The notes under the pieces are model-generated. The model did not search any database, had not been told where the DNA came from, and saw only the letters and a list, made by a program, of their open reading frames with translations. DNA of 64,000 nt. Source: an uncultured Candidatus Saccharibacteria bacterium. Its GTDB lineage: Bacteria; Patescibacteriota; Minisyncoccia; UBA6257; JAGOQP01. The translations under genes and the position numbers were made by a program. Position 1 is the first letter of the stretch; each line of letters begins with the position of its first letter. The DNA is taken from the NCBI GenBank assembly GCA_964420205.1, contig CAYQSO010000002.1, positions 7,765-71,764 of the forward strand, read 5' to 3'. Below, piece by piece: positions 3,381 to 54,810 of this stretch.

Positions 3381-4050
3381 CTCTTAATTCCTTTTCATAC
3401 TTTGCTAATTTATACGTTATACATGGGGTGCACTTCCCACACTCTATTATTTCTTTATTATCTAAAACAGGTTCTTCACACCACCAACAAAAATCTAAAA
3501 GACCTTCCTCTTCTAATTTATTTATTATCTCCAATTTCCTTTTAAGTGATAAAGGGAGCCTCCAAAGAGTACCTGAACACCCCACCATACGAAATGAATT
3601 ATTAATTATACTTTCTAATTCACTATAAGTATACCATATAGAATCATTATATATATAACCTAAATAAATACTGGTATTATCATCAATAAATGATAGTATA
3701 TTTGAAAACCAATAAAAAAATTGTAACCCTGAAGTAGTTCCTTGTTCTACCCAATTAATTTTAGGTAGTTTTAAATCTATTTTAACTTTAGCATAATTTA
3801 CATTATAACCTAAACTTTTTAAATACTTTTTAAACTTTTTTCTACTTTCTTCTTCTTTTTTTATCTTCTCTGATCTTAATCCCCAAAATTCCACAGAGAC
3901 ACAATTAATAGAATGCCCCTCTTTCTTACCATACTTCTTACAAAGTTCATACAATAATAAAGTAGAATCACACCCACCCGACCAAAGCAATAAGTGTTTT
4001 GTATGACCTGACTCAGGGTAATCTCCCAGATAGAAATAATTTTCTTCCAC
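3349..4050 (-). CDS. queC: QueC-like PP-loop ATPase (7-cyano-7-deazaguanine synthase family)
   Basis: PP-loop SGGxDS (LLLWSGGCDSTLLL) near the N-terminus and a QueC-type C-terminal zinc motif C..C...CGKCTPC (compare B. subtilis CGECPACHLR). 233 aa. Confidence 0.55.
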   Translation of the reverse strand: MEENYFYLGDYPESGHTKHLLLWSGGCDSTLLLYELCKKYGKKEGHSINCVSVEFWGLRSEKIKKEEESRKKFKKYLKSLGYNVNYAKVKIDLKLPKINWVEQGTTSGLQFFYWFSNILSFIDDNTSIYLGYIYNDSIWYTYSELESIINNSFRMVGCSGTLWRLPLSLKRKLEIINKLEEEGLLDFCWWCEEPVLDNKEIIECGKCTPCITYKLAKYEKELRDGAINSSFDR

Positions 4051-4110
4051 TACTTTCTCCTTTAAAACTATTAAACTAAATATATACCACTTATACTACT
4101 TTGTCAAGCA

Positions 4111-4145
4111 CAAATAAAAATCCCTTAGTAAAATTTTACTAAGGG
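4111..4145 (-). terminator. rho-independent terminator on minus strand
   Basis: Perfect palindrome cccttagtaaaa/ttttactaaggg (4122..4145), followed on the minus strand by ATTTTTATTTG. Confidence 0.45.
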
Positions 4146-9500: not shown

Positions 9501-9928
9501 TTCCACCCACCAGTAGAGGATAATATATCTACGTTATCACCATCACTAAAATCATTAAATGACTTTATTCCTTGCTTTGTTATAAATTCTGTATCTGATT
9601 TAAAACAGTTAAAATTACTAGAGGCATATTTTTTAGAGCTCTCTGTTCCACCTACCCATAATGTTCTGCCGCTTAAAAATCCTTTAAGGTTAAATATCGT
9701 ATCAAATAATTGCTCTGCTTCTCTTATAGAAACTCCATGAACTAACGAACAATTATATTCTACTGCTCTCCTAACTGTCTCCCACCAATACTCTCTTCTA
9801 TTTTGTTCTGGTAAATATCTTGAATAAGTTCTATAATAAACAAACTCTCCCAATGAAGTCATCGGTGGATTCACATCTTTATATTTACTTATAAATTCTT
9901 CACTTAATAACATTAATTTATGCCTCAC
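6557..9928 (-). CDS. nrdJ: adenosylcobalamin-dependent class II ribonucleotide reductase precursor, interrupted by two inteins
   Basis: N-terminal EFVYYRTYSRYLPEQNRREYWWETVRR is the class II RNR signature; NPC...EI thiyl-radical site; 1123 aa. About 450 aa is accounted for by two Hint/intein insertions. Confidence 0.85.
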   Translation of the reverse strand: MRHKLMLLSEEFISKYKDVNPPMTSLGEFVYYRTYSRYLPEQNRREYWWETVRRAVEYNCSLVHGVSIREAEQLFDTIFNLKGFLSGRTLWVGGTESSKKYASSNFNCFKSDTEFITKQGIKSFNDFSDGDNVDILSSTGGWKTATIRNFGKSKLVKLIVGRGKREDIIYTTENHRWYVKRYKSEKKFIVKTTNELKNGDILREKRRYEQTNIVPCSVGIQHGMVFGDGTYNKKMNHCRVHLVDNKQELALYFTTGSQCTAGKYNQKVIYGLPNTWKNLPSLNSNVEYLMGFVMGLFATDGSYYKSNISISNSNKNTLDHIKSIFSILGIDCGKVELNRELSPYTGEYAPNYRLNLYSKHVPDDFFLNSKHKSSVKETSFEPSWVVKGVEETDIIEDVWCVVEPETESFTLANNILTKNCSFTKIDNTEDICELFYLLLLGCGVGFLDVIENISAFSNLNTSIRILSKEYSEKIDKEEFSTLQTTGNVATIVVGDSKEGWVGALRYLFKCLENPLLSTILVDFDNVRPEGAPLKTFGGYASGHVPLKILFEKIIGIVSRSNGSLKTIDILDICNLVGCAVQVGGVRRTALVCLFDKDDEDVRLAKQGIYYQNEDGAWVSDPNKTHRVSSNNSILFNKRPSKEELVEIFNSIKTTGEPGFINKQEAQRRLPTMEGLNPCCFTGDMKLLTSKGYKTFKELNEKQIDIINADGNISQGKVWFTGRKPCIRLKMSNNRIIKCTEDHIFMLEDGSNCKAKDLKGKCLIFQSYCKKNDSIRDYNTVTIEDISHIGEHDVFDFEEPLSHWGIVNGFMVHNCEILLPSKGFCNLVEINVKSFVKDGELNEEILNAVRTFTRASYRMACVNIELPEWKKVQEEHMLLGVALSGWQDAVNLLYDKSEENQVSILKLLRETARTEATKIANSLGRNTPKLVTTIKPSGTLSLLPTISPGVHHSHSPYYIRRVRINSGDPLLKVAEELGYNISPEVGQDPETCDTNVIDFYVKSPEGKNKYDISAIEQLETYKMFMRNYTDHNTSITVTVRDNEWAGVIDWVYENWDDFVGISFLPLYDAKYPLAPYEAITEEEYNKLNKQFGKITPELIAKYEKQYNLDDDLGSDCENGVCPIR
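7490..7894 (-). mobile_element. intein 2 in nrdJ (about 135-aa mini-intein at the NPC active site)
   Basis: NPC|CFTGDMKLL...GFMVHN|CEILLP: N-terminal Cys, C-terminal HN, +1 Cys, and no endonuclease domain. Coordinates by residue counting (aa 679..813). Confidence 0.6.
8672..9607 (-). mobile_element. intein 1 in nrdJ (about 312 aa, LAGLIDADG homing-endonuclease type)
   Basis: Starts with Cys right after NFN (CFKSDTEF...) and ends ...ILTKN before the CSF extein. LAGLIDADG-like blocks HGMVFGDGTY and LMGFVMGLFATDGSY. Coordinates come from residue counting (aa 108..419). Confidence 0.65.
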
Positions 9929-12625: not shown

Positions 12626-13960
12626 TCATTCTAAAACAATTACATTTGAAGTTACTAATTCGCTTTTTCTTGCTTCATTGTACTCTCTTTTGTTGTTGCT
12701 TGCAACAACTACTTGAGTTTGTTTTAACACTCCACAAGCTTTACTAACTCTAACAGAATTAAAGTTAGTTCCCGACAAGCCATCGGTACATGTATTCCTT
12801 ACTTCATTAAGTAGGATATAATCTTTACAGTTCTTGAGATTAACTGCTGCATTGTAGTCTCTTTGGTGCTCTGCACCACAATTACTACATTTCCAGTTTC
12901 TATCTTTTAATTTTAGTTCTTTATTCTTCTCTCCACAGCTACTACATAACTTACTACTTGGAAAGAATTTATTTACTTCTCTTACTTCTATATTATGTTT
13001 TGTACACTTCTGTACAAGAACTTGTTTAAAATAGTAAGGTTTATTTTGAAGAATAGTTTTAGAAAGATGTTTGTTCCTAACCATTCCTTTAATATTTAAG
13101 TTTTCAACTGTAACATATCTAGGTTTCCCCTTAACTATGTTATCTATACATTTATTAGTATAAGAGTTTCTTATTTGTTCTAACCTGTAGTACACTTTTT
13201 CTACTCTTAGTTTATTTTTAATATAATTGTTACTTACTTTATCTCTCTTTTCTTTCTTCTTAGCTTCGTACTTTCTACTTAAAGCTCTCTGTTCTCTTCT
13301 TAATTTCTTTTCTAACTTTTTAACTCTAGTAGTTTTATTAATGTTTTTGTATTCTTCTTTGTTAGAACATGTTAAGAAAGTACTTATTCCCCAATCAATA
13401 CCAATACCTTCATTACAATTCTTATTATCTTTACTACTCTCTTCATCTGTTATAACAGAGATGAAATATCTATTAGATCTCTTAGTTATTACTCCACTTA
13501 TTATTTTATTGTTTCCTGTAGGGAGGTATCCTTTCTCTTTCAGAGAAACCTCTCCGAACATAGGAATTTTAATTTTATGCCTAGAACATCTTATAGGTCT
13601 GTTTGCCTCTACTCTAACAAAATAAACTCCTGTCTTGTCTTTAGAAGCTTTTTTAAATTTAGGAAATCCTTTCTTTGATTTAAATGCTTTTTGGTAAGTT
13701 GAATTACAATTATCTATAGTCTTTCTAAGAGCTTTACTCCCTGCTTCTTTCAACCAATGTTTATCTTCGTTCTCTTTTAAATAAACATTATTAAACCATT
13801 TAGAGAACTCGTAGTTATTAAGATATTTTTCTCCTGCGGAGTAACGTTCTTTATTAACAGAAATAAAAAGATTCCAGACAAATCTACATGCAGAAATTGT
13901 AAGCTTGTAAAGCTTCTCCTGTTCTTTATTTAGTTTTACTTCTGTCTTGTAAGCTTTCAT
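12626..13960 (-). CDS. tnpB: TnpB (IS200/IS605-family OrfB; OMEGA RNA-guided RuvC nuclease), copy 1
   Basis: Canonical MKAYKTEVKLNKEQEKL N-terminus, C-terminal zinc finger CSSCGEKN...CSNCGAEHQRDYNAAVNL (RuvC-III). The track ORF extends to 14086, but Met43 at 13958..13960 is the likely start, judged by alignment to copy 2. Confidence 0.85.
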   Translation of the reverse strand: MKAYKTEVKLNKEQEKLYKLTISACRFVWNLFISVNKERYSAGEKYLNNYEFSKWFNNVYLKENEDKHWLKEAGSKALRKTIDNCNSTYQKAFKSKKGFPKFKKASKDKTGVYFVRVEANRPIRCSRHKIKIPMFGEVSLKEKGYLPTGNNKIISGVITKRSNRYFISVITDEESSKDNKNCNEGIGIDWGISTFLTCSNKEEYKNINKTTRVKKLEKKLRREQRALSRKYEAKKKEKRDKVSNNYIKNKLRVEKVYYRLEQIRNSYTNKCIDNIVKGKPRYVTVENLNIKGMVRNKHLSKTILQNKPYYFKQVLVQKCTKHNIEVREVNKFFPSSKLCSSCGEKNKELKLKDRNWKCSNCGAEHQRDYNAAVNLKNCKDYILLNEVRNTCTDGLSGTNFNSVRVSKACGVLKQTQVVVASNNKREYNEARKSELVTSNVIVLE

Positions 13961-13993
13961 TGATAAAAAGAAAAGTTCTAAGAAATTATTTTG

Positions 13994-14057
13994 TAAGCAG
14001 ATACAATTCTTCCTAGAACTAAAATTAATATAAATCTTATTTAATTGTATCTGCTTA
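13994..14057. repeat. perfect 15-bp inverted repeat (taagcagatacaatt / aattgtatctgctta) with 34-nt spacer in the presumed IS left end
   Basis: Read directly from sequence (13994..14008 and 14043..14057); lies between the real tnpB start and the over-extended track start. Confidence 0.7.
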
Positions 14058-14175
14058 ATATTATAATTTAACTTAAAATTTTTCATTTAGATTTCCCTGT
14101 AAAGGTATTAAAAATGAATATGTTTTACATATATTTGATTATGTTATGGGAGACTGTTCATTATCTTCTCTCCTC

Positions 14176-28007: not shown

Positions 28008-28829
28008 TTAATAACTCTTAGTTTGAAATCCACTAGCTTTTACATGTCCGCCACCACCGTATTTCTCAGCTAACTTAGAACAGTTTATGTTATCTTTCTT
28101 AGTATAAATAGAAATAGTGTATTGCTGCCCATCATAGAAGAAAGGCATCATCAAATCAAAGTCTTCCTTTACACTGTCAAATAACTTACTCGACGTTTTC
28201 GCTACGTTACAGCAAACTGCTTTATGTCCCTCAAACTCTGCAAAAAACCCAACAGCTTCTATAACCTCTTTATATAACTCAGTTCTATATTGTAAAGCAT
28301 TCCTACCCTTCCCCAATACTTCTTTTAAGCCGTTCCCAAAAACCCAACTCAACCAATTATTACTATTCGGTGAAGTATCAAACAAAACTAAACCCGCTTG
28401 TAAAACATCTAATTGTTTTCCATACTTACCAAAATCCCAGACATCATAATGTCCTACCATTTCTACTGCTTTTGGAACTTTAACATTTGGATTATAATAT
28501 TCCCATGTTAACATGCAACCGGCAGTACCATCTCTTCTTATACCATCAAGAGTTTTGTTCTCTTCTTTATTTTTATTAATCGCTGAAATATGGTGATCAA
28601 TCCATACCACATTTTTAGTAATATCTAATAGTTTTTTAAACTCCCCTTCCTTTTGTAAAGAGAAATCTACTATTATTACTTCTTCATCTTTCTTTATTTT
28701 ATCGAATGGAAAATCTTTATTATAATCCATTTCTATAAGATCGTTATTTTTTACTTTATTTATATTTGCTCTATAAGCTATAAATGCAGAGCATCTTCCA
28801 TCTGCATCATTATGATAAAATATCTTCAT
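28008..28829 (-). CDS. DHH-DHHA1 family phosphoesterase (NrnA/RecJ-core-like)
   Basis: N-terminal HNDADGRCSA (DHH motif I region), WIDHHIS (DHH) and C-terminal GGGGH (DHHA1). Confidence 0.7.
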   Translation of the reverse strand: MKIFYHNDADGRCSAFIAYRANINKVKNNDLIEMDYNKDFPFDKIKKDEEVIIVDFSLQKEGEFKKLLDITKNVVWIDHHISAINKNKEENKTLDGIRRDGTAGCMLTWEYYNPNVKVPKAVEMVGHYDVWDFGKYGKQLDVLQAGLVLFDTSPNSNNWLSWVFGNGLKEVLGKGRNALQYRTELYKEVIEAVGFFAEFEGHKAVCCNVAKTSSKLFDSVKEDFDLMMPFFYDGQQYTISIYTKKDNINCSKLAEKYGGGGHVKASGFQTKSY

Positions 28830-28894
28830 AATTATTTTCTCCTTTCCTTCAGATTATTATAATCTCTCTATTATATTTTTGTCAACTACTCTGT

Positions 28895-30760: not shown

Positions 30761-30887
30761 TTAAATTCCTCTATTTAATTAAATACTTTTATATTTTAAT
30801 GTATTTTACTCAACGAGTACCCAATTAAAGAATTGTTTTATATTTAATAAATCCCCTGAGACAACTCTTCCATACACCCAAAAAACA

Positions 30888-33804: not shown

Positions 33805-34116
33805 CTATCCTCTTTTATAGCAATCCATTAAATAAGTATAGTCCATGTCACTACAATCCCCTTTATCTGACCAAAAAGACCAGTCTACAGTGTCGTCTCT
33901 TTGTAATACAACACTATCATCTTTAGCCCAATTTTCTATAAAATCCCACTCTACTTTAGAAAACTCGTCTGCTCTATCGAAAAAATTTCTCGGTCTCCAG
34001 TTAGGTATTTTAAAAACATGCATTATGTCGGGGAAAACACTACCTATAAAGCTACCTTTACCTAAGTGTAGGACTTCTTTTATATTTGGTTTTACTAAAT
34101 AAAATTCTGTTGCCAT
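33805..34116 (-). CDS. hypothetical protein
   Basis: 103-aa ORF. Confidence 0.3.
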   Translation of the reverse strand: MATEFYLVKPNIKEVLHLGKGSFIGSVFPDIMHVFKIPNWRPRNFFDRADEFSKVEWDFIENWAKDDSVVLQRDDTVDWSFWSDKGDCSDMDYTYLMDCYKRG

Positions 34117-34363
34117 TTTTATTCCATTGTCTATAAAATTAAATAAAATAAGTTTACTTCCTAATATGTCTTTATTCCTCGTAAGGGTATTTCTTTATGT
34201 TTAACCAAGTCCTTAAATCTTCAAAACAGTCCCAACAAATATAACACAATGTATCTGTTGAAAATCCCGAATCTAATAGTAACCTTGGTTTTCTGTAGTC
34301 ATTTTTTTAACTCTTTTCCACACTTAAGACAATTTTCTTTTAACATAATTAATCTCCTATTTA

Positions 34364-35056
34364 CTAAAAATCTGCCTCTCCAATTATTCTACAAAAAGCG
34401 TCTTGCACACTTTCACCGTTCTTCATTTTTCTGCTGAACCCAACAACCCCGCCTTTCCAACTTCCCTTATCACTCCCTATTTCCCTATCAAATTCTATGT
34501 TAAGATCTTGTATTACTCTTTTCGGAAACAATTTCCAAATACCTAATTTCTTTAGAATTCTCCAACTACCTATCCATCTTTCCATTGAACAAGTCGCTAC
34601 TGCTTTCTGATTTAATACATCTTCTGGTAAATGTTCTTTCCACGATGGTAAGCAGTATCTTAAACCAAATTGCCATGTCTTTAATCTATTCTCTTTAAAC
34701 CAATAACGTTCTTTCTCTGTTAAATTCTCCCAGTTTTCCTCTTCTATAATGTCTTCCTTCCACATACCATTTACTGTATAATACTCTTTCGCTACTTGCT
34801 CTATCATCCACGGCATATAAAATATTCGCCAGTTCTGTGGTATCTCTTTACCTATTGGTTTAAAACCTTCACAAACTCCCCAATGAACATATAAACTACC
34901 ATTATCATAAGATACCTCATATTTGTATGTAAGTAACCTATCTAATGATTTAGACACTGGAATGTACCACTTATCATTTATTTTTAAGCACCAAGGGGCT
35001 TTTTGCCCCACGATGCTCTTTTTCGTATAATTAACTAATGCAATACCAAATTTCAT
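34364..35056 (-). CDS. hypothetical Trp-rich protein
   Basis: 230-aa ORF. Confidence 0.3.
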   Translation of the reverse strand: MKFGIALVNYTKKSIVGQKAPWCLKINDKWYIPVSKSLDRLLTYKYEVSYDNGSLYVHWGVCEGFKPIGKEIPQNWRIFYMPWMIEQVAKEYYTVNGMWKEDIIEEENWENLTEKERYWFKENRLKTWQFGLRYCLPSWKEHLPEDVLNQKAVATCSMERWIGSWRILKKLGIWKLFPKRVIQDLNIEFDREIGSDKGSWKGGVVGFSRKMKNGESVQDAFCRIIGEADF

Positions 35057-35251
35057 TTAAAACTCCTAAACCTACAAAACAAACACTTTATTTTCTTTAT
35101 CTTCCTCTAACATGTCGGGTAAATGAAAACTACAACTATAAGTCAATTCGTAAGGTTTATTTTGATATTGAATTTCGAATTCTGCTTTTCTATTACATTT
35201 TTCATAACAACAAACTAAAGTATCTTTCATAATTTACTCCTCTTATAACTA

Positions 35252-36727
35252 CTAATCGTTAATTATCTCACCACCATCATCTAACTGTTTTTTAAACCAA
35301 TCAGGTTTAGAATTATTAATAGAAGTATTTTGATCTACTGCACCTACTACTTCTTTTCCATCTACCATAGAACCAAAAACCGTTGGTAATTGAATTCCAG
35401 CTTGTTTAGCTAAGTCCTGCATTTGTGGAATCGTACCCATAATATCTCTTGCAAGACCTGAAATAAGACCCTGACCATCTTTTCCACTACTATTTCCAGA
35501 ATCCCAAATAGTAAGTTTATCAATTTTAAGATTTTCAAGAGCTTTAACCTGTTCTTTAATAATAGGTTCAATCTTATCAAGCATTAAATATCCGTTTGCC
35601 ATTGCAGGGTTTCCTCCAGCAGCTTCTACTAGCTTTTTATAACCATCTGCTTGCGCTTTCAGAACCTTCTCAATACCATCTGCTTCTGCATAATACTTAG
35701 CTTTTACAGCGTCTGCCTCGCCTTGAGCTATTCTACGAATTCTCTCTGCTTCTGCTTCTGCTTGTACTGCTATTTTCTGTTTCTCAATTTCTTCTCTTAC
35801 AACTTCTTCTTTTTCTAAGCGAGCTTTTTCTGTAAGTTTCTGTGCCTCTGCTACAGCTTTCTCTGCTTCTGCCTTTGCTATGTCACCTTTTCTCATAGTT
35901 TCAGCTTCCTTAATCTTTAACTGAGCATTTGTTTCAGCAATCACCATTTTAGAAGTATTCTCACCTTCTACAGCAGTTGCATTTAATTCAGCAGTTTTTA
36001 TCCTCCTTTCCTGTTCTGCTCCCACCTGACCAATATTTGTCTGAGCCATTTGCTGTGCCACTTCAACTTCTCTACCTCTTACAGCTTTTGCCTCTCCTGT
36101 AGCACCGAACTGTTCCTGTTGTGCAACTTCTACTCTTGCTTTGTTTATTGCTTCTGAGGCCGCTTTCTTGCCTATGGCTTCAATATAACCAGACTCATCT
36201 GTGATATCTGTTATATTTACATTAATAAGACTTAATCCAATTTTATTAAGTTCTTCTTCTACATTAGTATTGATTTGGTTTAAGAATTTTTCTCTATCTT
36301 GATTAATTTCTTCTATAGTTAAAGTTGCTGCTACTAACCTTAGTTGGCCAAATATAATATCCCTAGCCTGTTCTACTATTTCCTTTTCTGAAAAATCTAA
36401 CAATCTTTCTGCTGCATTCTGCATAAGTTCATCTTTTGTTGACACTGCAAAAGTAAACGTAGAAGGAATATTAATTCTAATATTCGTCTTAGATAAAGCT
36501 CCTTTAAGGTCAATATCAGCTACCATAGGATGTAATGATAAGTACCCGTAGTCTTGTAAAATAGGAATTACGAATTTACCACCACCATGATAACTCTGAG
36601 CAGATTTACTACCTGTTTTACCAAAAACTACTAAAATCTGATTAGAAGAACAACGTTTATACTGCGCTATAAAAACAGTAGATGCTACTCCTAATCCACC
36701 TAAACCAAATAAACTTTCTAAAATCAT
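35252..36727 (-). CDS. flotillin-like SPFH/band-7 membrane protein (FloT/YuaG-like)
   Basis: N-terminal membrane anchor (LFGLGGLGVASTVFIA), SPFH domain and a long Glu-Ala-rich coiled coil (AKAEAEKAVAEAQK...AVQAEAEAERIRRIAQGEADA) characteristic of flotillins. Confidence 0.7.
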   Translation of the reverse strand: MILESLFGLGGLGVASTVFIAQYKRCSSNQILVVFGKTGSKSAQSYHGGGKFVIPILQDYGYLSLHPMVADIDLKGALSKTNIRINIPSTFTFAVSTKDELMQNAAERLLDFSEKEIVEQARDIIFGQLRLVAATLTIEEINQDREKFLNQINTNVEEELNKIGLSLINVNITDITDESGYIEAIGKKAASEAINKARVEVAQQEQFGATGEAKAVRGREVEVAQQMAQTNIGQVGAEQERRIKTAELNATAVEGENTSKMVIAETNAQLKIKEAETMRKGDIAKAEAEKAVAEAQKLTEKARLEKEEVVREEIEKQKIAVQAEAEAERIRRIAQGEADAVKAKYYAEADGIEKVLKAQADGYKKLVEAAGGNPAMANGYLMLDKIEPIIKEQVKALENLKIDKLTIWDSGNSSGKDGQGLISGLARDIMGTIPQMQDLAKQAGIQLPTVFGSMVDGKEVVGAVDQNTSINNSKPDWFKKQLDDGGEIIND

Positions 36728-36739
36728 TTTGTACTCTCT

Positions 36740-36860
36740 CTTTCTTTTTAATGTGTATTTTACTAACTATTAACTTACTTAATGTATATTATATTAACTA
36801 TTAATTTTTTAAAACCTATTATACCTGTTATTAATGTTCCTGAAACCCTTATAGAGTATA
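36740..36860 (-). promoter_or_regulatory. AT-rich promoter-like region with duplicated TTAATAGTTA motif upstream of the flotillin gene
   Basis: Minus-strand reading ...TTTTAAAAAATTAATAGTTAATATAAT...TTAATAGTTAGTAAAAT... gives two -10-like hexamers (TATAAT, TAAAAT), each preceded by TTAATAGTTA. Confidence 0.25.
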
Positions 36861-36865
36861 TTATA

Positions 36866-37090
36866 TTATATTTCTTTTAATTTATTTTGCATAAGTAATA
36901 TTTCTTCTACGAACAAATCTCTCATATCTTTCTCATTTCTAAAATTATAAATTTTAACTACACCTGACTTATATACTATAGATACTATATAATCTGTTTT
37001 ATCTAAAAACTCACCAAAATCAATATCTACTTCCATTGAAAGTATCTCATCTATATCTATATAATAATCACTACAAATCTCAGTTAGCAT
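36866..37090 (-). CDS. hypothetical small protein
   Basis: 74-aa ORF. Confidence 0.25.
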   Translation of the reverse strand: MLTEICSDYYIDIDEILSMEVDIDFGEFLDKTDYIVSIVYKSGVVKIYNFRNEKDMRDLFVEEILLMQNKLKEI

Positions 37091-37170
37091 ACTACTATCC
37101 TAATTTCTCCATATTAATACAAATCTACATCTAAATAATCACATTGTTCACGTATTTCGTCATCTATAGA

Positions 37171-37392
37171 CTATCTTCCTTTATCTATGCATCCTATATG
37201 TTTATTAATCAATGCTTTCACATAATCATCTTCTCTATTATCTTTCAATTCTATTATAATGTTATCTTCAAATACCTTAACAGAAAAATATTTTAAGTCT
37301 AAATCAGCTATTAAATCTTTTAAGTTATCTTTAAAATCATCATGACCTAAATATTCAGAAGCACCTGAGTAAGCATTGAAAACTCTCCCCAT
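37171..37392 (-). CDS. hypothetical small protein
   Basis: 73-aa ORF. Confidence 0.25.
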   Translation of the reverse strand: MGRVFNAYSGASEYLGHDDFKDNLKDLIADLDLKYFSVKVFEDNIIIELKDNREDDYVKALINKHIGCIDKGR

Positions 37393-37664
37393 TATAAACT
37401 ACTTTCTACCTCCATAAATAATTTGCTTACGAAATAATCTAAAGAATTATATGTAATTTTAATATCTTTTATCATAATTTGAACAGGTTTTAAATCGTTA
37501 ATATATTTCAATAAATGCGATATATCATCATAATGAGTTGAATCTAGTTGAACTAATAAACTTATACAAGCTACTCCTGTCTTTTTAACAAACACTCTTT
37601 TTACAGATGGCCTTCTTTTTAATTCCTCTATCAAATATTCCTCACTTCCAAATTTAGACATCAC
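37392..37664 (-). CDS. hypothetical small protein
   Basis: 90-aa ORF, coupled to the ACP-like gene. Confidence 0.25.
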   Translation of the reverse strand: MMSKFGSEEYLIEELKRRPSVKRVFVKKTGVACISLLVQLDSTHYDDISHLLKYINDLKPVQIMIKDIKITYNSLDYFVSKLFMEVESSL

Positions 37665-38047
37665 ACCTTACCCACTAATATTTCGTAAATATCTCTAACA
37701 ATATATATGTCATCCCATTCTTCATCTGTAATTTCAATATTAAACTCATCTTCTAAAGCCATCACTAGCTCAACTTCATCTAAATAGTCTAAGGATAGAT
37801 CTTCATAAATATTAGAATCTATATCTATTACTATATCACTCCCTCTTAAATAAGTAAAGTACTTATAAAGAACATCATAAATTTTATTTAATACATCATT
37901 ATCTAAGGAATCTTCTCTATCATTTTTATAATAATTCTGATAGTAATAATAAACATCGTAACATTCTTCATATCTTGTAATATAATCGGAATAACTATGT
38001 ATTAATTTAATAAGTTGTTCTTTATTTAGTTTTTTAAGGTCTAACAC
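37661..38047 (-). CDS. acyl-carrier-protein-like protein (ACP helix-II look-alike; canonical phosphopantetheine Ser replaced by Tyr)
   Basis: C-terminal [25 protein letters not shown] aligns with E. coli ACP [25 protein letters not shown], but the DSL serine position is Tyr (DYL). Verified by manual back-translation. Confidence 0.5.
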   Translation of the reverse strand: [128 protein letters not shown]

Positions 38048-38268
38048 TAAGACTCTCCATATCTTCTGTAAGCTTCTGATTTAGGGTCAAATACCCCTTC
38101 GGATTCTAAATAAACCAATTTAACACACCCTAATTCCATACCAACGTCTTCCTGTACATATAAGTCTCCTAAGTAAGGTGACTTTCCTAATTGCTGTGAT
38201 AAATAACCTATCCAATTAGTTTTATTTTCTTTGTACGTTTTAGGATGAACCTTTACTACAAATCCCAA
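38047..38268 (-). CDS. hypothetical small protein
   Basis: 73-aa ORF. Confidence 0.25.
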   Translation of the reverse strand: MGFVVKVHPKTYKENKTNWIGYLSQQLGKSPYLGDLYVQEDVGMELGCVKLVYLESEGVFDPKSEAYRRYGES

Positions 38269-38353
38269 ATTTATTTCTCCTTAAATAAAAATAGTTTACT
38301 ATTTATTAGAATAATAAACTACTTTTTATCTTGTGTCAATACGTAGATTTATT

Positions 38354-41300
38354 TTAGAGCGGTTTCGGTATTAAAGTAGTACGTGATTCATCATCTACCC
38401 ATTTAAAATCGAATATTTGTCCAAAACGATACCCCAGTCCAATTGTAGCTTTAATAGGCAAAGGCCAATCTGGTAAGCTAAAATACATTATATCTTCTAT
38501 TAACCTAGTGTATTCTACTATTTTATCTAAATCAACATAAAGGTTCACTTCGTCATGTATTGTCGAAAGAAAAGCACACTCTTTTTCTTTTTCGGATATA
38601 CTAAATATTTTCTGATACATCTTCTTAAGAACTATACGCATAATATCCCCCGCACTTCCCTGGATTATGTGGCTGCTGACTCTTCTCTCAGCAGCAGATA
38701 TCATATTATTTGACTCTCTTTCACCTTTCCTAGGGTCTTCTGCTTCTCTTTCTATCCTCTCAGCCATATTTACATATGACCCGAAGCGTCTGGGCCTCCC
38801 ACAGAACGTAAATGTAGTTCCGGCATTATTCCACATCTTATTTATTTCATTTTGTCTCCATTGCATAGCCCCAAAAAAAGCTTCACAATAGGCATCATAA
38901 AGAGCTGTTGCGTGTTCTAACGGGATTCCAGAATTCTTAGATATGGAATCAGAATGACCACTATAATTTATAGCAAAATTCACAGCCTTTGCTATTTTTC
39001 GTAGCCCCTTGTTATAATTTTCTCTACCCCATATAGCGTACGCTGTCGCAGTATGTGGATCAATACCTTCCCTGAAATTTGATAACTTTACACTATCTTT
39101 ACTGTAATTAGTAAGGAGAACGTCTTCCTGTGAACTGTAATCCACACTCAAAATAATCTTTTTCTTACTATTAACCTTTTTAAATGATGGAACTACTACA
39201 CAATTTCTAATATTAAAATTAGGGGAGAACCCTTCTACTAAATAACAGTCTTCTGAGTCAGTGTGGTTTTTAATGTCTTCATCAGACATTAAATCAAAAC
39301 ACCAACCTAATATATTACCCTCTTTCTCAGATTTGTATGCTTTATAAATCGCTCCTGACGGTTTACTAAGATTCTGCGCATTAAGATCTATATAATAGGG
39401 GTTCTTAGTCTTCTTATCACTCTTACTCCCATTACCACTTGCAAATCTCCCTGAAGCGGTCCCAAAAAGTTTATATCTCATCCTACACTCATCTACCTTA
39501 GTCAGTTTATCAATGTAACTATTGATAGCCTTATTCATAGTAGAGTACTTCTGTATCTTCTTTAAAATACTTAACTTTTCATTTTCTTTTTTAAGCATTA
39601 TTTTTAATATTTTTAAAAAATATTTTCTATTGAGAATTCTACTTCCTTTTTTAAGCGGAACTAGTTTCTTATTTTTATTCTTTCTTTTCGCTCTGCTCAA
39701 TACTCTTATAGTATTGTTATTCAACTGCATTACTTGGAAATAGTCACTCCCATGTGCTTCTAGTATTTTATATAAATAAAACATATCTACGTGTTCTCTT
39801 ATATGTAATTCTGAAGCACAAAATCCTTTTGTAAAATAACCTTCTTCATTCTTTTCTAATTTTTCTATAATACCTCGTAAATCTGTTAAATTCTTAGAAA
39901 ATATTCTTGTACCATCTTTTTTACCAAAAGAAATCTGATCTGTATCTGTCCTTGCCCCAGTATCTATATTCTTAGATGCCATAGCATTTTTAAACTCTTT
40001 AGAAGAGGTACTAAGGTTGAATATTCCTATATCAAAATAATTATATATTTCCTCCTTAAGCTGAGTTATTACTTCGATAGCTTTTTCTTTATATTTTTTA
40101 GCTTCTTCTTTATCTATATAAAGTTTAGTATGTCCATAATAATCAATCCAATACCTTATAAGAGTGTTGTCTGATTTTATAACGTCAAATTTTTTACCGT
40201 TAAACTCTACTATATTGGGGTAAGTACTTATTAGTTTTTTAACTTTCGGATATAAATAGTAAAAAAGTGCCAAGCAGCAACATGAGTCTGCACAATTACC
40301 CGAAACCAAGACTTTACCATTTCTTCTAGTTATTAAAGTGTGATTTGGTACTTCTGCACAATAAACCACCCCACTATATGGAACAATTTCTCTCTGGTAT
40401 TTCTTGTATCTAACACTTTTCTGTCTTTGTGTGTACACACTATAAATTTGGTGCACATTTTCTCTTTTTATTACACGTCCTCTAATAACACAGTCTTTTT
40501 TAGGTGGTGCTTTTAAAGTTAATATACTAGTCCTACCACCCAACATTAATAGCTCTTGTAACTGATTAGCCATTTTGATAGATGTAGTATAAAAAACCCA
40601 CGCTGAGTCAGTTTTTCTAGACCCATCACAATAATTAAAATATTTTAGAAACTCATTTATACAGTACGAATCCATTTTAAAAATTTCAGGTGGAATATAC
40701 TTTTTCTGAGCCTTACCTTCCATATAAGGTTTTATCCAATTATAAAACTTTTTATTATAACAAACCCAGCTATTCCCTTTTTCTCTTTTGTTAGGGCGAA
40801 ACCCCATATTAGTTTCCATTAACATATTTTCTAACTCTTTTTTGAATTTATCGCTACAAACAGCCAGCCCTATGTGATAACAAACTTGCTTGTCGCCTCT
40901 TTGAACAATCCAACCATCTGCCAACAACGCACCTGTTAATCTGGCTAATTGTACAGGGGTTAAATTAACATTCTTACTAAAATGAAAAGAATCCTTCCCA
41001 CTACCTTTCTTCTCTGTGGGAGCTTTATAACCGCTTTCTTCAACTAAAAGATCTTTTGCCTGTTTGAATACCCATTCTTTATGTTGTGCTCGCTTAACTA
41101 GCATATTATGGTTGGGGGTAACACAAAAATCAAGATGTTTACTTTTATAAGAAATCATCTCTCCTTTATATTCATACGCATATAACCTTAGAGGACGCTG
41201 GTACTCTAATTCATCTTTTTCCACATTTACAGTAGCTAAAAGGTCTTCTCCATTATAATCTTTCCACATTACCCAACCATTTTCAGTCAATACTTCAGTC

Positions 41301-42319
41301 TGATCATCGTGGCATGCATAAATAACTGTGCTCCTATCGTAGGGGCATACATACTTGAATTCACCCGGAAATTCTAACATAGTACGTCCTAGATACAATT
41401 TAGCACTTAACTTAAGTCCTGCCATTTTTGACTCCGCATCAAAAAGATACGGAAGTATCATAGAGTCAAAAAAGTTAACTTTTTCAATAGAATAACCTTC
41501 TTTCTTATACATATTAAGGTCAAATTCAGCATTATGGATTACTACTAACTTTGCACTTGTTAAAGCTTTATATAAAATATCAAGGGACTTTTTTGCACTT
41601 CTCTCATTTTCTTCTTCTGTTAAAACATAACTAGAAACTTCCATTTCAGATAAATGCTTTTCAAAGTCTCCTATCATACAGTCTATACTACCAAGTTTAG
41701 CTTCTACTACTTCTTTTTCTAAATCTTTAGAATTTTCAAGAAAGTTTTCTTTATCTTGTTTTAACCCATCTATTAATTTTTGCGTCTCTTCTCTTTGTCT
41801 CTGTAATTCTAATTGCTCCCTTACTTCTTTGCTACATATATTTCCATTATGTAATGAATACTCATACGTCTTTACCGTAGTCTGACTTACTCTTCCTGTT
41901 TTAGTATATACTACATTTCCTTCTTCATCTAATTTAGGAACTTTTTCTGAACCCACTTCTTTTTTTCGCATATGTCTCAAAGGGCAATAAATCCCCGAAT
42001 TGTCGTCCAGTGAAAGAGAGAACCCTACAATGTAATCACCACCTTCTTCTCGAGGTGAACTGTTCAGTCCAGTAGTTTCAGTGTCAAACCCGATTATCTT
42101 ATCTTTACAAAGTTCTACGAATTCTTCCAACTCTTCTAAAGTATTAACAAGTTTATAGTCCCCTAAATAAATAAGATTCCCTTCCTCATCGTATTTATGA
42201 AACTTATTATCAAACTCTCTATAACCATGTACAGGTATATATTTGTACAACGTTTTACTGCTTTTTTTCTTTTGTTCTACCTTTTGTTGAACATATTTTT
42301 TCTTATAATCTTTTGTCAT
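38354..42319 (-). CDS. family A DNA polymerase (3'-5' exo plus polymerase domains) precursor containing an intein
   Basis: Exo I IGFDTETTGL; polymerase motif A LSVDYSSQE, motif B RKIAKAVNFAINYS, motif C LSTIHDEVN. The likely true start is MTKDYKK, 12 codons inside the track ORF (which begins at 42355). Confidence 0.85.
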   Translation of the reverse strand: MTKDYKKKYVQQKVEQKKKSSKTLYKYIPVHGYREFDNKFHKYDEEGNLIYLGDYKLVNTLEELEEFVELCKDKIIGFDTETTGLNSSPREEGGDYIVGFSLSLDDNSGIYCPLRHMRKKEVGSEKVPKLDEEGNVVYTKTGRVSQTTVKTYEYSLHNGNICSKEVREQLELQRQREETQKLIDGLKQDKENFLENSKDLEKEVVEAKLGSIDCMIGDFEKHLSEMEVSSYVLTEEENERSAKKSLDILYKALTSAKLVVIHNAEFDLNMYKKEGYSIEKVNFFDSMILPYLFDAESKMAGLKLSAKLYLGRTMLEFPGEFKYVCPYDRSTVIYACHDDQTEVLTENGWVMWKDYNGEDLLATVNVEKDELEYQRPLRLYAYEYKGEMISYKSKHLDFCVTPNHNMLVKRAQHKEWVFKQAKDLLVEESGYKAPTEKKGSGKDSFHFSKNVNLTPVQLARLTGALLADGWIVQRGDKQVCYHIGLAVCSDKFKKELENMLMETNMGFRPNKREKGNSWVCYNKKFYNWIKPYMEGKAQKKYIPPEIFKMDSYCINEFLKYFNYCDGSRKTDSAWVFYTTSIKMANQLQELLMLGGRTSILTLKAPPKKDCVIRGRVIKRENVHQIYSVYTQRQKSVRYKKYQREIVPYSGVVYCAEVPNHTLITRRNGKVLVSGNCADSCCCLALFYYLYPKVKKLISTYPNIVEFNGKKFDVIKSDNTLIRYWIDYYGHTKLYIDKEEAKKYKEKAIEVITQLKEEIYNYFDIGIFNLSTSSKEFKNAMASKNIDTGARTDTDQISFGKKDGTRIFSKNLTDLRGIIEKLEKNEEGYFTKGFCASELHIREHVDMFYLYKILEAHGSDYFQVMQLNNNTIRVLSRAKRKNKNKKLVPLKKGSRILNRKYFLKILKIMLKKENEKLSILKKIQKYSTMNKAINSYIDKLTKVDECRMRYKLFGTASGRFASGNGSKSDKKTKNPYYIDLNAQNLSKPSGAIYKAYKSEKEGNILGWCFDLMSDEDIKNHTDSEDCYLVEGFSPNFNIRNCVVVPSFKKVNSKKKIILSVDYSSQEDVLLTNYSKDSVKLSNFREGIDPHTATAYAIWGRENYNKGLRKIAKAVNFAINYSGHSDSISKNSGIPLEHATALYDAYCEAFFGAMQWRQNEINKMWNNAGTTFTFCGRPRRFGSYVNMAERIEREAEDPRKGERESNNMISAAERRVSSHIIQGSAGDIMRIVLKKMYQKIFSISEKEKECAFLSTIHDEVNLYVDLDKIVEYTRLIEDIMYFSLPDWPLPIKATIGLGYRFGQIFDFKWVDDESRTTLIPKPL
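40295..41314 (-). mobile_element. intein in DNA polymerase (about 340 aa, LAGLIDADG type) inserted in the Exo III motif (YA|C..D)
   Basis: VIYA|CHDDQTEVLTENGW...LARLTGALLADGW...FLKYFNYCDGS...VPNHTLITRRNGKVLVSGN|CADSCCCLALFYYL; the extein junction restores the Y-x-x-x-D exo motif. Coordinates by residue counting (aa 348..687). Confidence 0.6.
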
Positions 42320-42644
42320 TATTAAAATTAACTCCTGTACTAGATAAACCAACATTAGTGAAATTAAAATCTTTGTACTTCCACCAATCTTTTTTCTTCA
42401 TCATCTTTTTAACTTTTCTTGGGTACTTATCCCACCTACAGTACTTCCCGATACCTAATATGTAATTAAATATTATTAATTTTACTCTATTTTCTATATT
42501 AGTTTGAATTTCTCCCACACATTCGCCATAGGGCTCTCTTACAGCAGAAGTAGCAGTATCTCTTGACTCACATAAATATTGAGACGATATTCCTGTTGCC
42601 ATAACAATGTCTTGTCTTAATTTATATAATCTCTCTTCTATCAT
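42303..42644 (-). CDS. hypothetical protein
   Basis: 113-aa ORF upstream of the polymerase. Confidence 0.3.
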   Translation of the reverse strand: MIEERLYKLRQDIVMATGISSQYLCESRDTATSAVREPYGECVGEIQTNIENRVKLIIFNYILGIGKYCRWDKYPRKVKKMMKKKDWWKYKDFNFTNVGLSSTGVNFNNDKRL

Positions 42645-48363: not shown

Positions 48364-49083
48364 CTATTTTTTAAGTTTCCTACTTCTACGTCGCCATAAA
48401 ATACTTTGTCTTACCTGCTCAAAAACATGCTTATGGTAATTATCATATTCTGCTGTAGGTATTGAGTTACAATGTAGAAGCCCCTCTTCTATAGTAGACC
48501 TACTACTTAGTAACTCTTTAGAATATTCATCTATAGTTCCATTAACTATTATAAACCTTATTTTAAATATATCAAACTTACCAAACATCCTAGCAATACG
48601 CCCAATAACCTGCCTAAATTTGCGATACGCAGTGGGTACTGTATAAAGGATAAGTTCATCAGTAGGATTAAGATTAAGAGAGGCTCCCCCCGCATCACTA
48701 ATAAAAACTATCTTTCTTTCTGGATTATCATGAAACCAGTCTTCTACTTCTTTTCTTTTGTGTGTTTTCTCAACACCTGTTATCTTTTTACACTGAACGT
48801 TAATGTCTTTACTTTTTATAAATTCTATTAAATTAGAGATTGTTTTTACTCTTTTTGCATAAACAACTACACCTTTATCTATAATCTTTTTACCAGAATC
48901 CTCATCCACTACCTCAGCCAATACTTTAAAGAACAAGTCTTTTTTCTCATCGGTATTATCTACATATTCCTGCATATCGGCAAGAGCAGCACCGACATTT
49001 AACTTCTTTTTCTTCTCTTTAGAAGAGTTACTCTTCTTTATTATATTTAGTGCTTTTTGTAGATTTAGATTTATCTTTGGCAT
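48364..49083 (-). CDS. SF2 helicase, C-terminal domain (motif VI)
   Basis: FRQVIGRIARMFGKFD corresponds to helicase motif VI (QxxGRxxR); continuation of the upstream ORF after a frame change. Confidence 0.5.
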   Translation of the reverse strand: MPKINLNLQKALNIIKKSNSSKEKKKKLNVGAALADMQEYVDNTDEKKDLFFKVLAEVVDEDSGKKIIDKGVVVYAKRVKTISNLIEFIKSKDINVQCKKITGVEKTHKRKEVEDWFHDNPERKIVFISDAGGASLNLNPTDELILYTVPTAYRKFRQVIGRIARMFGKFDIFKIRFIIVNGTIDEYSKELLSSRSTIEEGLLHCNSIPTAEYDNYHKHVFEQVRQSILWRRRSRKLKK

Positions 49084-49891
49084 TTTTTTCCAACCCTATC
49101 TTTATTATACTATCATACTCTTTATAGTCTTTTAACTCAGTAGTATATTCAAAAAACTTTAAATTTATTTTAGGGAAATAAAAATAAGTAAACGATTCGA
49201 GCTCTTTTCTTAGTCCTGAAATATTAATGTACTCTACAGGGTCCATTCTAAGAAACTTCCCCCTCCAATCTTTAACTTCTTCTTCTACTATATATTTTTG
49301 TTTAAATTCCTTTATAGCACTGCTTAAATATTTATAATATTTTTCCGGTCTTACCAAACACATCATACCTAAAACCTGTAACAAAGAACTCGACCACGGG
49401 GTAGCTGTCATCGCTATGATTCTATCCCACATAAAATAAATTTTCTGGTAAGCACCGTGAACTATAGAATCGTAGTTATTCATTTCGTGTGCTTCATCTA
49501 TAATTAGTAATATCTTCTTATAATTCTTAGTTAAAGACTTTTTAAAGAATTGAATGTTTTCTTCATCTAACCCAATATCCTTAATCATAGAATGTTTTAT
49601 TAAAATTATTTTATCATCACCCTCAACAGCCTTTTTAAAATCTTCTACTAATTCAATTATACTTAGTTTTATACCTAATTTTTCAGCATCTTTAATAAAA
49701 GGAGTCGTTGCTGAAGGTGTTGCTACAATAACTATTTTATCTATCATTTTATTTTTATACAAATAACGTCCTGTAAAGACCGAGGATAGGGTCTTACCTG
49801 CACCTGCTGATACAAACCATAAACACTTCTTAATATTTATAGCAAATTTAGCTGCGTTTTGCTGATAATCTCTTAAAACTATTTTTTTCAT
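49028..49891 (-). CDS. SF2 helicase, N-terminal RecA-like domain (motifs I, II, III)
   Basis: Walker A FVSAGAGKTL, DEAH box LIIDEAHEM and motif III MTATP. Overlaps the downstream ORF by 56 nt in another frame. Confidence 0.6.
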   Translation of the reverse strand: MKKIVLRDYQQNAAKFAINIKKCLWFVSAGAGKTLSSVFTGRYLYKNKMIDKIVIVATPSATTPFIKDAEKLGIKLSIIELVEDFKKAVEGDDKIILIKHSMIKDIGLDEENIQFFKKSLTKNYKKILLIIDEAHEMNNYDSIVHGAYQKIYFMWDRIIAMTATPWSSSLLQVLGMMCLVRPEKYYKYLSSAIKEFKQKYIVEEEVKDWRGKFLRMDPVEYINISGLRKELESFTYFYFPKINLKFFEYTTELKDYKEYDSIIKIGLEKNAKDKSKSTKSTKYNKEE

Positions 49892-53339: not shown

Positions 53340-54810
53340 TATTGTTCTCCTTACCTATTGACTTTTAATCTGTTGAACTAAAGACTCTATATACAAATCA
53401 AACTGCTCCAAATTAGTAACTTTAAACATAATTTATCCTACTTGAAGTTACTAATTCGCTTTTTCTTGCTTCTCCAGTATACCTGTTAGGTATACAATCG
53501 TACTCTCTTTTATCACCAGAGGCGACTACTTGAGTTTGTTTTAACACTCCACAAGCGTTAATTCCCGACAAGCCATCGGTATTTACACTATTTAACAATG
53601 TGTATTCTTTACAATTCTTAAGGTTTACTGCTGCATTGTAGTCTCTCTGGTGCTCTGCACCACAACTACTACATTTCCAGTTCCTATCTTTTAATCTTAA
53701 CATATTATTTTTAGTATTACAAATACTACATAATTTAGATGAAGGGTAAAATCTACCTACTTCTCTTACTTCTATATTATGTTTAGTACACTTTTGTGTT
53801 AGAGTTTGTTTAAAGTAATAAGGTTTATTTTGTAGGGTAGCTTTACTTAGATGTCTGTTTTTAACCATTCCTTTTACATTAAGGTTCTCAATAGAAACAA
53901 ATTTAGGTTTCTTCCTAACTATATCATCAATACACTTATTAATGTAGGAATTTCTTATTTGTTCTAACCTATAATGAAGTTTAGAAACTTTATCTTTATT
54001 CTTTATATAATTGTTAGAAACTCTATCTCTTTTCTCTTTTTTCTTGGCCTCGTACTTCCTATTTAAAGCTCTCTGTTGTCTTTTAAGATTTTTTTCTAGC
54101 TTCTTAATCTTAGTAGTCTTATTAATATTTTCGTAACTAGTACTATTAGAACATGTCAAATATGTACTAATCCCCCAGTCAGCACCAATTCCTTCATTAC
54201 AATTCCTGTAATCTCTCGTACTCTCCTCGTATACTATAACAGAGATAAAATACTTACTAGCTCTCTTAGTTATTGCTCCACTTATTATTTTATTAGACTC
54301 TATAGGAAGATATCCTTTTTCTTTTATGTGTATCTCTCCAAACATAGGAACTTTTATCTTGTGTCTCTCACATTTAATAGGTTTATCTAAAGATGCTCTT
54401 ACAAAATATACCCCTGTCTTATCAGTAGAAGCTTTTTTAAATTTAGGAAATCCTTTCTTCTCCTCCATAAATTTAACATAAGTATTATCACAATTCATCA
54501 TTGTCTTCCTAAGAGCTTTACTTCCAGCTTCCTTTAACCACTGTTTATCTTCATTCTCTTTGAGATACTCATTATTGAACCATTTACTAAAGTTGTAGTT
54601 ATTAAGATATTTTTCTCCTACGGAGTATCTTTCTTTATTAACAGAGATAAACAAATTCCAGACAAACCTACAAGCTGAAGTAGTAAGCTTGTAAAGCTTT
54701 TCCTGTTCCTTATTTAATTTTATCTCTGTTCTATAAGCTTTCATTAATGGGACTGTTCTATCTTTTATACTCATCAAATGTGTAAAATAATGTTATTAAA
54801 ATTTAATTTA
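53340..54810 (-). mobile_element. second TnpA-less IS605-family element (boundaries approximate)
   Basis: tnpB copy 2 with a 10-bp inverted repeat aattagtaac/gttactaatt flanking its stop codon (53411..53456) and a 3' flank partly shared with copy 1 (aaacataat). Confidence 0.45.
53422..54744 (-). CDS. tnpB: TnpB (IS200/IS605-family OrfB; OMEGA RNA-guided nuclease), copy 2
   Basis: MKAYRTEIKLNKEQEKLYKLTTSACRFVWNLF N-terminus; CSICNTKNN...CSSCGAEHQRDYNAAVNL C-terminus. Roughly 70 percent identical to copy 1 by eye. The track start at 54777 is 11 codons upstream of the canonical MKAY start. Confidence 0.85.
   Translation of the reverse strand: MKAYRTEIKLNKEQEKLYKLTTSACRFVWNLFISVNKERYSVGEKYLNNYNFSKWFNNEYLKENEDKQWLKEAGSKALRKTMMNCDNTYVKFMEEKKGFPKFKKASTDKTGVYFVRASLDKPIKCERHKIKVPMFGEIHIKEKGYLPIESNKIISGAITKRASKYFISVIVYEESTRDYRNCNEGIGADWGISTYLTCSNSTSYENINKTTKIKKLEKNLKRQQRALNRKYEAKKKEKRDRVSNNYIKNKDKVSKLHYRLEQIRNSYINKCIDDIVRKKPKFVSIENLNVKGMVKNRHLSKATLQNKPYYFKQTLTQKCTKHNIEVREVGRFYPSSKLCSICNTKNNMLRLKDRNWKCSSCGAEHQRDYNAAVNLKNCKEYTLLNSVNTDGLSGINACGVLKQTQVVASGDKREYDCIPNRYTGEARKSELVTSSRINYV

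Follow-up and report, generated by a model that had tools for sequence, protein, structure and literature searches.

The 64,000-nucleotide (64-kb) stretch of contig CAYQSO010000002.1 that was analyzed here in full, and to which we refer as the window, is part of the genome of a tailed phage and carries on its minus strand an open reading frame (ORF; 35252..36727) that encodes a genuine full-length protein of the flotillin family. The ORF begins with ATG and specifies 491 amino acids (aa), its span including the stop codon, and residue 1 of the product is aligned to the N-terminus of bacterial homologs. Because stop codons are frequent at a GC content of 30%, a flotillin ORF of ~1.5 kb is no chance event. 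Searches against Pfam recovered the Band_7/SPFH domain (PF01145; 102.5 bits against a cut-off of 23.6, E = 3.5e-29, profile positions 4-175 of 176) and, by a narrow pass, the Flot domain (PF15975; 29.7 bits against a cut-off of 27, E = 7.4e-07, profile positions 1-123 of 124), and both domains are precomputed on every one of the best 120 homologs. In the PDB, the best match is to flotillin-1 from the recently solved complex of flotillins (E = 2.6e-27; residues 25-438 aligned to 4-409), with flotillin-2 matched as well (E = 7e-20), and a profile built from 45 homologs aligned with flotillin-1 (E = 1.5e-30) in two stretches that span profile positions 29-495 and reach the C-terminal domain. Flotillin was the best match throughout, with no HflK or HflC among the Pfam, NCBIfam, and PDB matches of the protein. 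Among the PHROGs, a weak and partial match to the SPFH 'lipoprotein' family phrog_200 was obtained (E = 1.5e-4, residues 128-231), and the PADLOC models gave zero matches at E <= 0.01 for the flotillin and nine neighbors.

The NCBIfam equivalog model for FloT (NF058507) also matches along its full length (residues 15-452 of the protein, positions 13-473 of 477 in the profile), with 136.8 bits against a cut-off of 700; because this score lies far below the cut-off, the protein is best classified as a member of the flotillin family and not as a FloT ortholog. The original prediction, which was made from the DNA letters and a list of translated ORFs, had described the product as a FloT-like SPFH protein and had proposed a profile search, with placement in an unrelated coiled-coil family as the result that would speak against it. 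The search returned Band_7/SPFH and Flotillin and no unrelated coiled-coil family, and with both Pfam domains above their cut-offs and the long alignment to flotillin-1, the SPFH/flotillin identity is borne out; the epithet 'FloT-like' holds at the level of the family and fails at that of the equivalog.

The predicted architecture is summarized in Table 1. Residues 5-21 form the sole strong Kyte-Doolittle peak of the protein (top window, 1.91) and align with the longer hydrophobic N-terminus that is the anchor of bacterial homologs, in agreement with the earlier description of a full-length protein with a putative membrane anchor. The EA-repeat region that had also been proposed is evident in residues 186-372, which contain 20% Ala, 17% Glu, and 12% Lys together with 21 EA or AE dipeptides, the assignment being based on composition and not on a coiled-coil predictor, and this region aligns to the coiled-coil part of flotillin-1. 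The C-terminal Flotillin domain is the oligomerization region in known flotillins. The homologs that served as input for AlphaFold were too alike, which resulted in models of low confidence, and because of this low confidence we rely on homology to solved structures. The better of the models, still of low confidence, comprises, in the order expected of a flotillin, a helix at residues 2-21, six strands, four helices, and then a helix of ~190 residues, the long helical region consisting of the nearly continuous helices 178-230 and 236-370. When this low-confidence model was compared with the PDB using Foldseek, the flotillin complex came first (E = 2.1e-09), followed by prohibitin and stomatin, with template-modeling (TM) scores of only ~0.2.

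Table 1. Coordinates of the flotillin gene, of its predicted parts, and of the neighboring features discussed in the text.
Feature	Position	Strand	Basis
Flotillin coding sequence	35252..36727	-	491 aa + stop; Pfam Band_7 + Flot, PDB flotillin-1
N-terminal hydrophobic segment, residues 5-21, putative membrane anchor (LFGLGGLGVASTVFIA)	36665..36715	-	Hydropathy
SPFH/Band 7 domain, residues 27-205	36113..36649	-	Pfam PF01145
Ala/Glu/Lys-rich long helical region (EA repeats), residues 178-370	35618..36196	-	Composition, model
C-terminal Flotillin domain, residues 326-444	35396..35752	-	Pfam PF15975
Lineage-specific C-terminal tail, residues 445-491	35255..35395	-	15% identity to bacterial consensus
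Leader/intergenic region, 138 nt, holding a tandem duplication	36728..36865	-	Repeat search
Nearest strong upstream sigma-70-type promoter, TTGACA-17-TATTAT	38311..38339	-	Sigma-70 scan, 11/12 matches
Acb3-like protein, 230 aa, candidate inhibitor of the cyclase of the cyclic oligonucleotide-based antiphage signaling system (CBASS)	34364..35056	-	Pfam PF25187, E = 1.5e-21, 77.8 bits vs 27

In cellular genomes, flotillin is typically accompanied by a second gene. At the loci of Candidatus Gastranaerophilales, the gut bacteria whose flotillins are the nearest cellular relatives of the phage protein (see below), an ORF of ~185 aa lies a few bases upstream of flotillin on the same strand, and its product has a hydrophobic N-terminal two-thirds and a soluble C-terminal part. 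A hidden Markov model (HMM) of this partner matches 75 of the 80 bacterial loci, which represent many phyla, three of the five misses being contigs that end upstream, and in 79 of the 82 viral loci it matches the ORF that immediately precedes flotillin on the upstream side. The partner profile matches the C-terminal domain of Bacillus subtilis YuaF weakly (E = 0.035); YuaF is an NfeD-like protein encoded upstream of floT. None of the window ORFs of >=40 aa was matched by the partner HMM at E <= 0.01, and tblastn for the partner protein likewise found none, both results applying to the 64-kb window, beyond which the phage genome extends. A 74-aa upstream ORF was considered as a remnant of the partner and rejected, there being no HMM, tblastn, or family support for it. 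As far as its sequence can tell, the window lacks the canonical nfeD(yuaF/yqiJ)-flotillin operon, in which the gene just upstream of flotillin specifies a multi-pass membrane protein ending in a beta domain at its C-terminus, and this orphan state is the main departure of the locus from the norm.

The exact protein sequence is a singleton among 5.8 billion protein clusters, the next best being 53-62% identical (BLAST), and identity over the whole alignment to the nearest cellular flotillins, those of gut Gastranaerophilales, is 55-58%. In a scan of species genomes, with one genome per species, the 24 best loci belong almost without exception to Candidatus Gastranaerophilales/Melainabacteria (Vampirovibrionia) metagenome-assembled genomes (MAGs) from animal guts, with locus GC contents of 0.28-0.41. 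The phage protein is 56.5% identical to the Gastranaerophilales flotillins and 52.6% to those of other phyla, and the Gastranaerophilales flotillins are 81.7% identical to one another and 56.0% to those of other phyla; in neighbor-joining bootstraps, the sister group of the phage flotillin was purely Gastranaerophilales in only 31 of 100 replicates. Recent capture from this group was considered and rejected on these grounds, the phage protein being about as close to Gastranaerophilales as that group is to other phyla. Rather, the 55-58% identity to the nearest cellular flotillins and the GC content of 0.19 at third codon positions (GC3), compared with 0.30 for the window overall, indicate an old, diverged, fast-evolving copy on a long branch. 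The SPFH domain is 73% identical to the bacterial consensus, the coiled coil 54%, the Flot domain 50%, and the tail, which is longer than in homologs, 15%. Of the positions with >=97% conservation in the bacterial set, 85 are substituted in the phage protein, and among the columns that are >=90% conserved in bacteria, the phage protein keeps 77% in the SPFH domain and 59-63% in the coiled coil and Flot domain. Gastranaerophilales (gut Melainabacteria) may tentatively be put forward as the source of the gene or the host of the phage; no described Melainabacteria phage turned up in our literature searches, none of which was aimed at that question. A second, weak pointer to this host group is that the phage dUTPase (11484..11957, minus strand) is 58% identical to a dUTPase encoded ~2 kb from flotillin in one Gastranaerophilales MAG (L019, 6730-7233), that taxon alone having been compared.

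The original prediction regarded a flotillin in a phage as unusual. Eight records of the GenBank phage collection match, and three of these span most of the protein: csAssE-Sib (OR575929, WOZ57345.1; 40-44% identity), Vibrio phage KIT04 of the Demerecviridae (LC487410, BBL19217.1; 33-35% identity), and one unannotated fecal contig. The products of the first two are annotated as 'flotillin family protein'. No matches came from scanning IMG/VR or the species genomes with the single protein, the peptide patterns being too specific, or from a first alignment-based viral scan; an IMG/VR scan with a mixed alignment that included both GenBank phage flotillins identified at least 143 contigs with flotillin, this number being a lower bound, most of them csAssE-like genomes of 80-155 kb from the human gut and four of them more diverse. 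One 90% cluster of the csAssE-type flotillin has 2433 member sequences, on contigs of up to ~155 kb. Phage flotillin is thus rare in cultured phages, yet annotations of it exist and gut viromes contain it in abundance, so that the claim of unusualness holds only in part. In the csAssE-Sib-like gut lineage (~150 kb; loci L001 and L084-L163), a conserved block of an acyl carrier protein (ACP), a YuaF/NfeD-like membrane protein, and flotillin is located in the replication module. Because the flotillin-partner pair is fixed in this abundant gut-phage lineage, the comparison argues that flotillin is useful to phages. In the phage genome papers that mention SPFH proteins, their role is described as unclear or is guessed (PMC13239085, PMC8540360, PMC13384950).

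All sizeable genes of the window are located on the minus strand. The products include a family A DNA polymerase of 1333 aa (38354..42355) and a class II ribonucleotide reductase of 1123 aa (6557..9928), each with an intein and LAGLIDADG homing-endonuclease segments inside, as well as ThyX, an ATP-dependent ligase, a DnaB-like helicase, an AAA ATPase, a UvsX-like recombinase, a tail protein, a virion structural protein, a baseplate wedge subunit, an exonuclease, and further helicase fragments. Phage genes flank the flotillin on both sides, which upholds the phage origin assumed in the original prediction. The phage is novel, with no near relative among 50,697 phage records: neither megablast of 15 kb nor tblastn of the helicase protein against these records produced a match. 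A single-protein scan of IMG/VR with the Acb3-like gene found no relatives either. The AAA ATPase recovered only jumbo-phage homologs from the human gut, of 35-37% identity and with no common gene order. These searches were aimed at relatives of this phage in which the absence of flotillin could be checked, and they found none. An ENA contig of 16.7 kb, in turn, is 99.96-99.99% identical to the window over the overlap and has the same gene order. It contains ~73 extra bases (L003, 2688-2760) in a Cys-rich ORF (35072..35230, minus strand), whose product changes from 52 aa to 59 aa with another C-terminus; the difference reads as a strain-level indel.

Within the phage genome, flotillin belongs to a module for replication and nucleotide metabolism, where it lies between five small genes of unknown function, downstream of the DNA polymerase gene, and the Cys-rich 52-aa ORF. 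The Acb3-like gene is located two genes downstream of flotillin on the same strand, and its annotation is also precomputed on the ENA contig; its product has no PADLOC match. Acb3 has been described as a CBASS cyclase inhibitor (bioRxiv 10.1101/2025.07.23.666291). Several other genes deserve mention in their own right. A 128-aa protein (37661..38047, minus strand) has an ACP-like C-terminal half, with a PP-binding score of 18.9 bits, just below the cut-off, and the serine to which phosphopantetheine is attached gives way to tyrosine (LSLDYLDEVEL, compared with LGLDSLDQIEL in the ACP of csAssE-Sib); an ACP-family gene lies within ~1.3 kb upstream of flotillin in both of the unrelated flotillin-bearing phage lineages. 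Two paralogous TnpB-like 'transposases' (12626..14086 and 53422..54777, minus strand) match phrog_506 (E = 1e-94 and 2e-91), and weak homologs of these proteins occur in some csAssE-like loci. The overlapping ORFs 48364..49083 and 49028..49891 (minus strand) correspond to successive parts of the phrog_62 helicase (positions 692-895 and 990-1124) and could represent a split or frameshifted helicase gene or a case of programmed frameshifting. A single tRNA gene, for tRNA-Trp with anticodon CCA, was identified in the phage (5610..5683, minus strand).

The leader of the flotillin gene contains two direct repeats of 29 nt (36748-36776 and 36779-36807) that are 86% identical and start 31 nt apart. 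A degenerate 26-mer derived from both copies occurs at just those two sites in the 64 kb, compared with a chance expectation of 0.02. The duplicated promoter-like motif that had been noted earlier (36740..36860) is therefore real as a duplication; as a promoter it finds no backing, the sigma-70 scan having detected no minus-strand promoter at the motif. The 13-mer and 11-mer sub-motifs of the duplication occur at chance frequency across the window, and the one similar 11-mer seen in a different intergenic region (30800-30810) does not suffice for defining a motif. Two interpretations were tried and found unsupported, namely, a promoter, because the duplication is unlike the TTGACA/TATAAT promoters of the window and its sub-motifs are not enriched elsewhere, and an RNA element, because the leader RNA, which is less structured than shuffled sequence (z = +1.78), has no stable fold and a Rfam scan of the leader found no family. 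The duplication could bind a regulator, act as a promoter of a non-sigma-70 type, or be functionless.

The promoter nearest to flotillin among the strong upstream ones (Table 1) is a candidate for the point at which transcription starts and from which it would continue across the five small genes into flotillin, presumably as a single transcript; no terminator-like site was found within 34000..38500, and hence none between this promoter and the Acb3-like gene. It is one of the near-perfect sigma-70 promoters (TTGACA, 17 nt, TATAAT/TATTAT) of the window, the others being located at 28830..28894 and ~4051..4120 on the minus strand. Each lies in front of a gene: that at 28830..28894 precedes the gene for a DHH-family phosphoesterase (28008..28829), that at 38311..38339 a small gene (38047..38268), and that at ~4051..4120 the gene 3349..4050. 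Because such near-perfect promoters precede three genes, it seems that host RNA polymerase drives the early genes of the phage.

For the function of the protein, we consider an autonomous membrane scaffold made during infection to be the likeliest reading and give it an even chance of being correct, an estimate that includes the secure family identity. The flotillin would be transcribed with early or middle genes, most likely from the sigma-70-type promoter at 38339..38311, because no terminator lies in between, and residues 5-21 would anchor the protein in the host inner membrane on its cytoplasmic side, where it may self-assemble into a ring or dome around a membrane patch, as in the solved flotillin complex and other SPFH complexes. 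With such a scaffold, the host membrane would stay fluid, intact, and organized throughout the shutdown of host gene expression and a period of membrane stress, and membrane-dependent processes, such as energy supply and envelope synthesis, would thereby be sustained until programmed lysis. The gene would then be a structural 'auxiliary host gene' whose product is no enzyme. In keeping with this reading, bacterial flotillins control membrane fluidity (eLife 2020, PMC7360373), closed oligomeric domes are built by flotillin and other SPFH proteins (PDB 9bq2, 9l3g; PMC12624060), and host proteins that remodel membranes influence how phage lysis turns out (DynA, PMC8844932). The ORF is also intact, and its GC3 fits an AT-rich phage.

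Several points weigh against the scaffold reading. The hydrophobic segment is 4-5 residues shorter than its bacterial counterparts; the mean predicted local distance difference test (pLDDT) score of the AlphaFold models was 39.9 with 22 near-identical homologs and 51.8 once the csAssE-type clade had been added, both of which are low; and oligomerization and membrane insertion are predicted from homology. The missing partner and the diverged C-terminal half could mean an altered rather than a host-like function, and the timing of flotillin expression is predicted from a candidate promoter. With the ambiguous position of the gene in the tree, any phage host is a candidate at most, and the literature yielded no paper testing the function of any phage flotillin.

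The missing partner gene, present in the candidate hosts and in almost every other carrier, is also what would be expected of a Trojan subunit, that is, a phage flotillin that co-assembles with the host flotillin, uses the YuaF/NfeD-like partner of the host, and alters or poisons microdomains and their machines for takeover of the cell; we consider this unlikely. Flotillin-1 and flotillin-2 are roughly half identical to each other. With ~57% identity, the phage protein is no more distant from its candidate host counterpart than these two proteins are from each other, and they form one mixed ring (PDB 9bq2, 9l3g). Divergence is greatest in the oligomerization half and in the tail, as expected if the interfaces had been retuned, but the same divergence could equally block co-assembly, and the argument is purely inferential, the host and its flotillin being candidates. 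Anti-defense genes often cluster, and the flotillin lies two genes upstream of the Acb3-like gene. It might serve as a scaffold by which the inner membrane is stabilized or repaired under attack from membrane-disrupting abortive-infection effectors, of which the transmembrane and phospholipase types in CBASS are examples, and which in this way buys time for the phage to complete replication. SPFH proteins have been linked to Psp-type membrane repair (PMC8581546). However, adjacency to one gene is weak evidence, neither the flotillin nor its small neighbors match PADLOC or an anti-defense family, and the neighbors of the csAssE-Sib flotillin are replication, not anti-defense, genes; a defensive role of this kind seems less likely still. 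In a broader version of both ideas, the orphan flotillin would be a retooled factor for takeover or anti-defense, inserted into the flotillin-partner rings of the host or forming a phage-specific cage against abortive-infection effectors, and would act with its Acb3-like neighbor. This version is doubtful, although less so than either idea taken singly, and, if true, it would make the protein the first structural membrane scaffold shown to serve a phage.

The putative membrane location and the probably early expression would also suit superinfection exclusion or lysis timing, in which the scaffold blocks the entry of rival phage DNA or sequesters a holin or another membrane protein and thereby delays lysis, and phage SPFH proteins have been guessed to act in adsorption or DNA entry (PMC13239085). 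Such a role is improbable in our view, with no recognizable lysis cassette adjoining flotillin and no precedent for a flotillin in exclusion. HflK/C is an SPFH cage around FtsH and influences the CII decision of lambda. A phage cage of that kind might enclose and regulate host FtsH or another membrane protease, sparing unstable phage proteins, and this type of role has been discussed for phage SPFH proteins (PMC8540360); yet the protein is of the flotillin type, its best PDB and profile matches being to flotillin-1 and flotillin-2 with no HflK/HflC model, and no lysogeny genes were seen in the window, which leaves the explanation quite improbable. As for a functionless gene, be it a passenger, a decaying capture, or part of a bacterial or chimeric contig, it would be compatible with a singleton lineage among 5.8 billion clusters whose next match is at 62%, and within which purifying selection is not measurable. 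We nevertheless find it very improbable: the ORF of 491 codons is intact at 30% GC in spite of the many stop codons that occur at such a composition, the protein keeps 77% of the near-invariant SPFH positions, the composition is adapted to the phage, phage genes lie on both sides, and two contigs (16.7 kb from ENA and 83 kb) agree at 99.96-99.99% over their common stretch.

Flotillins and other SPFH proteins occur across every domain of life, and their role in bacteria is still debated. A virus-borne flotillin represents a natural experiment, in that a phage keeps a gene only if there is a payoff inside one infection cycle, and flotillin turns up repeatedly in several large phages that are unrelated to one another, among them a lineage that is very abundant in the human gut. 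Comparison of paired and orphan flotillins could reveal the contribution of the partner and could show which membrane process is key for the phage: fluidity, repair, protease control, or evasion of defense. The gene also provides a tentative clue to the host, which may belong to the gut Melainabacteria. The value of this single locus is moderate, its identification being routine, similar annotations being available, and the mechanism being speculative, and the locus is a divergent addition, partner-less within the 64-kb window, to the phage flotillins that are already in the databases.

Among known systems, the phage protein has the SPFH domain and a phage origin in common with the short SPFH lipoproteins of phages (PHROG 200; Schitoviridae, Bruynoghevirus, and jumbo phages) (PMC13239085, PMC8540360, PMC13384950); these lipoproteins are without the flotillin C-terminal domain, and their match to the phage flotillin is weak and partial. 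The flotillin-1/flotillin-2 complex (PDB 9bq2, 9l3g), which was the top fold match of the low-confidence model, is homologous to the phage protein nearly end to end at ~22-25% identity, but the eukaryotic flotillins have an anchor formed by acylation and a hairpin and assemble into a mixed ring of two paralogs. Bacterial flotillins of the FloT/YqiK type have an equal domain order and length (461-528 aa in the best 120, compared with 491 aa in the phage) and share with the phage protein the QYKRC motif after the hydrophobic N-terminus and many invariant SPFH residues; relative to them, the phage protein has a shorter anchor, an unrelated C-terminal tail, and no upstream YuaF/NfeD-like partner in the window. 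Among the phages, KIT04 resembles the window phage in having flotillin without a detectable partner gene, although it is a T5-like phage of a proteobacterium and its flotillin looks like an independent lineage. The csAssE-Sib flotillin, with 566 aa compared with 491, retains the partner directly upstream and has replication genes as its neighbors; the phage is otherwise unrelated, flotillin being the sole window ORF matched in the 17.6-kb stretch that was compared. Even so, csAssE-Sib and its IMG/VR gut relatives, like the window phage, encode a full-length flotillin with Band_7 and Flot domains in the replication module, with an ACP-family gene shortly upstream.

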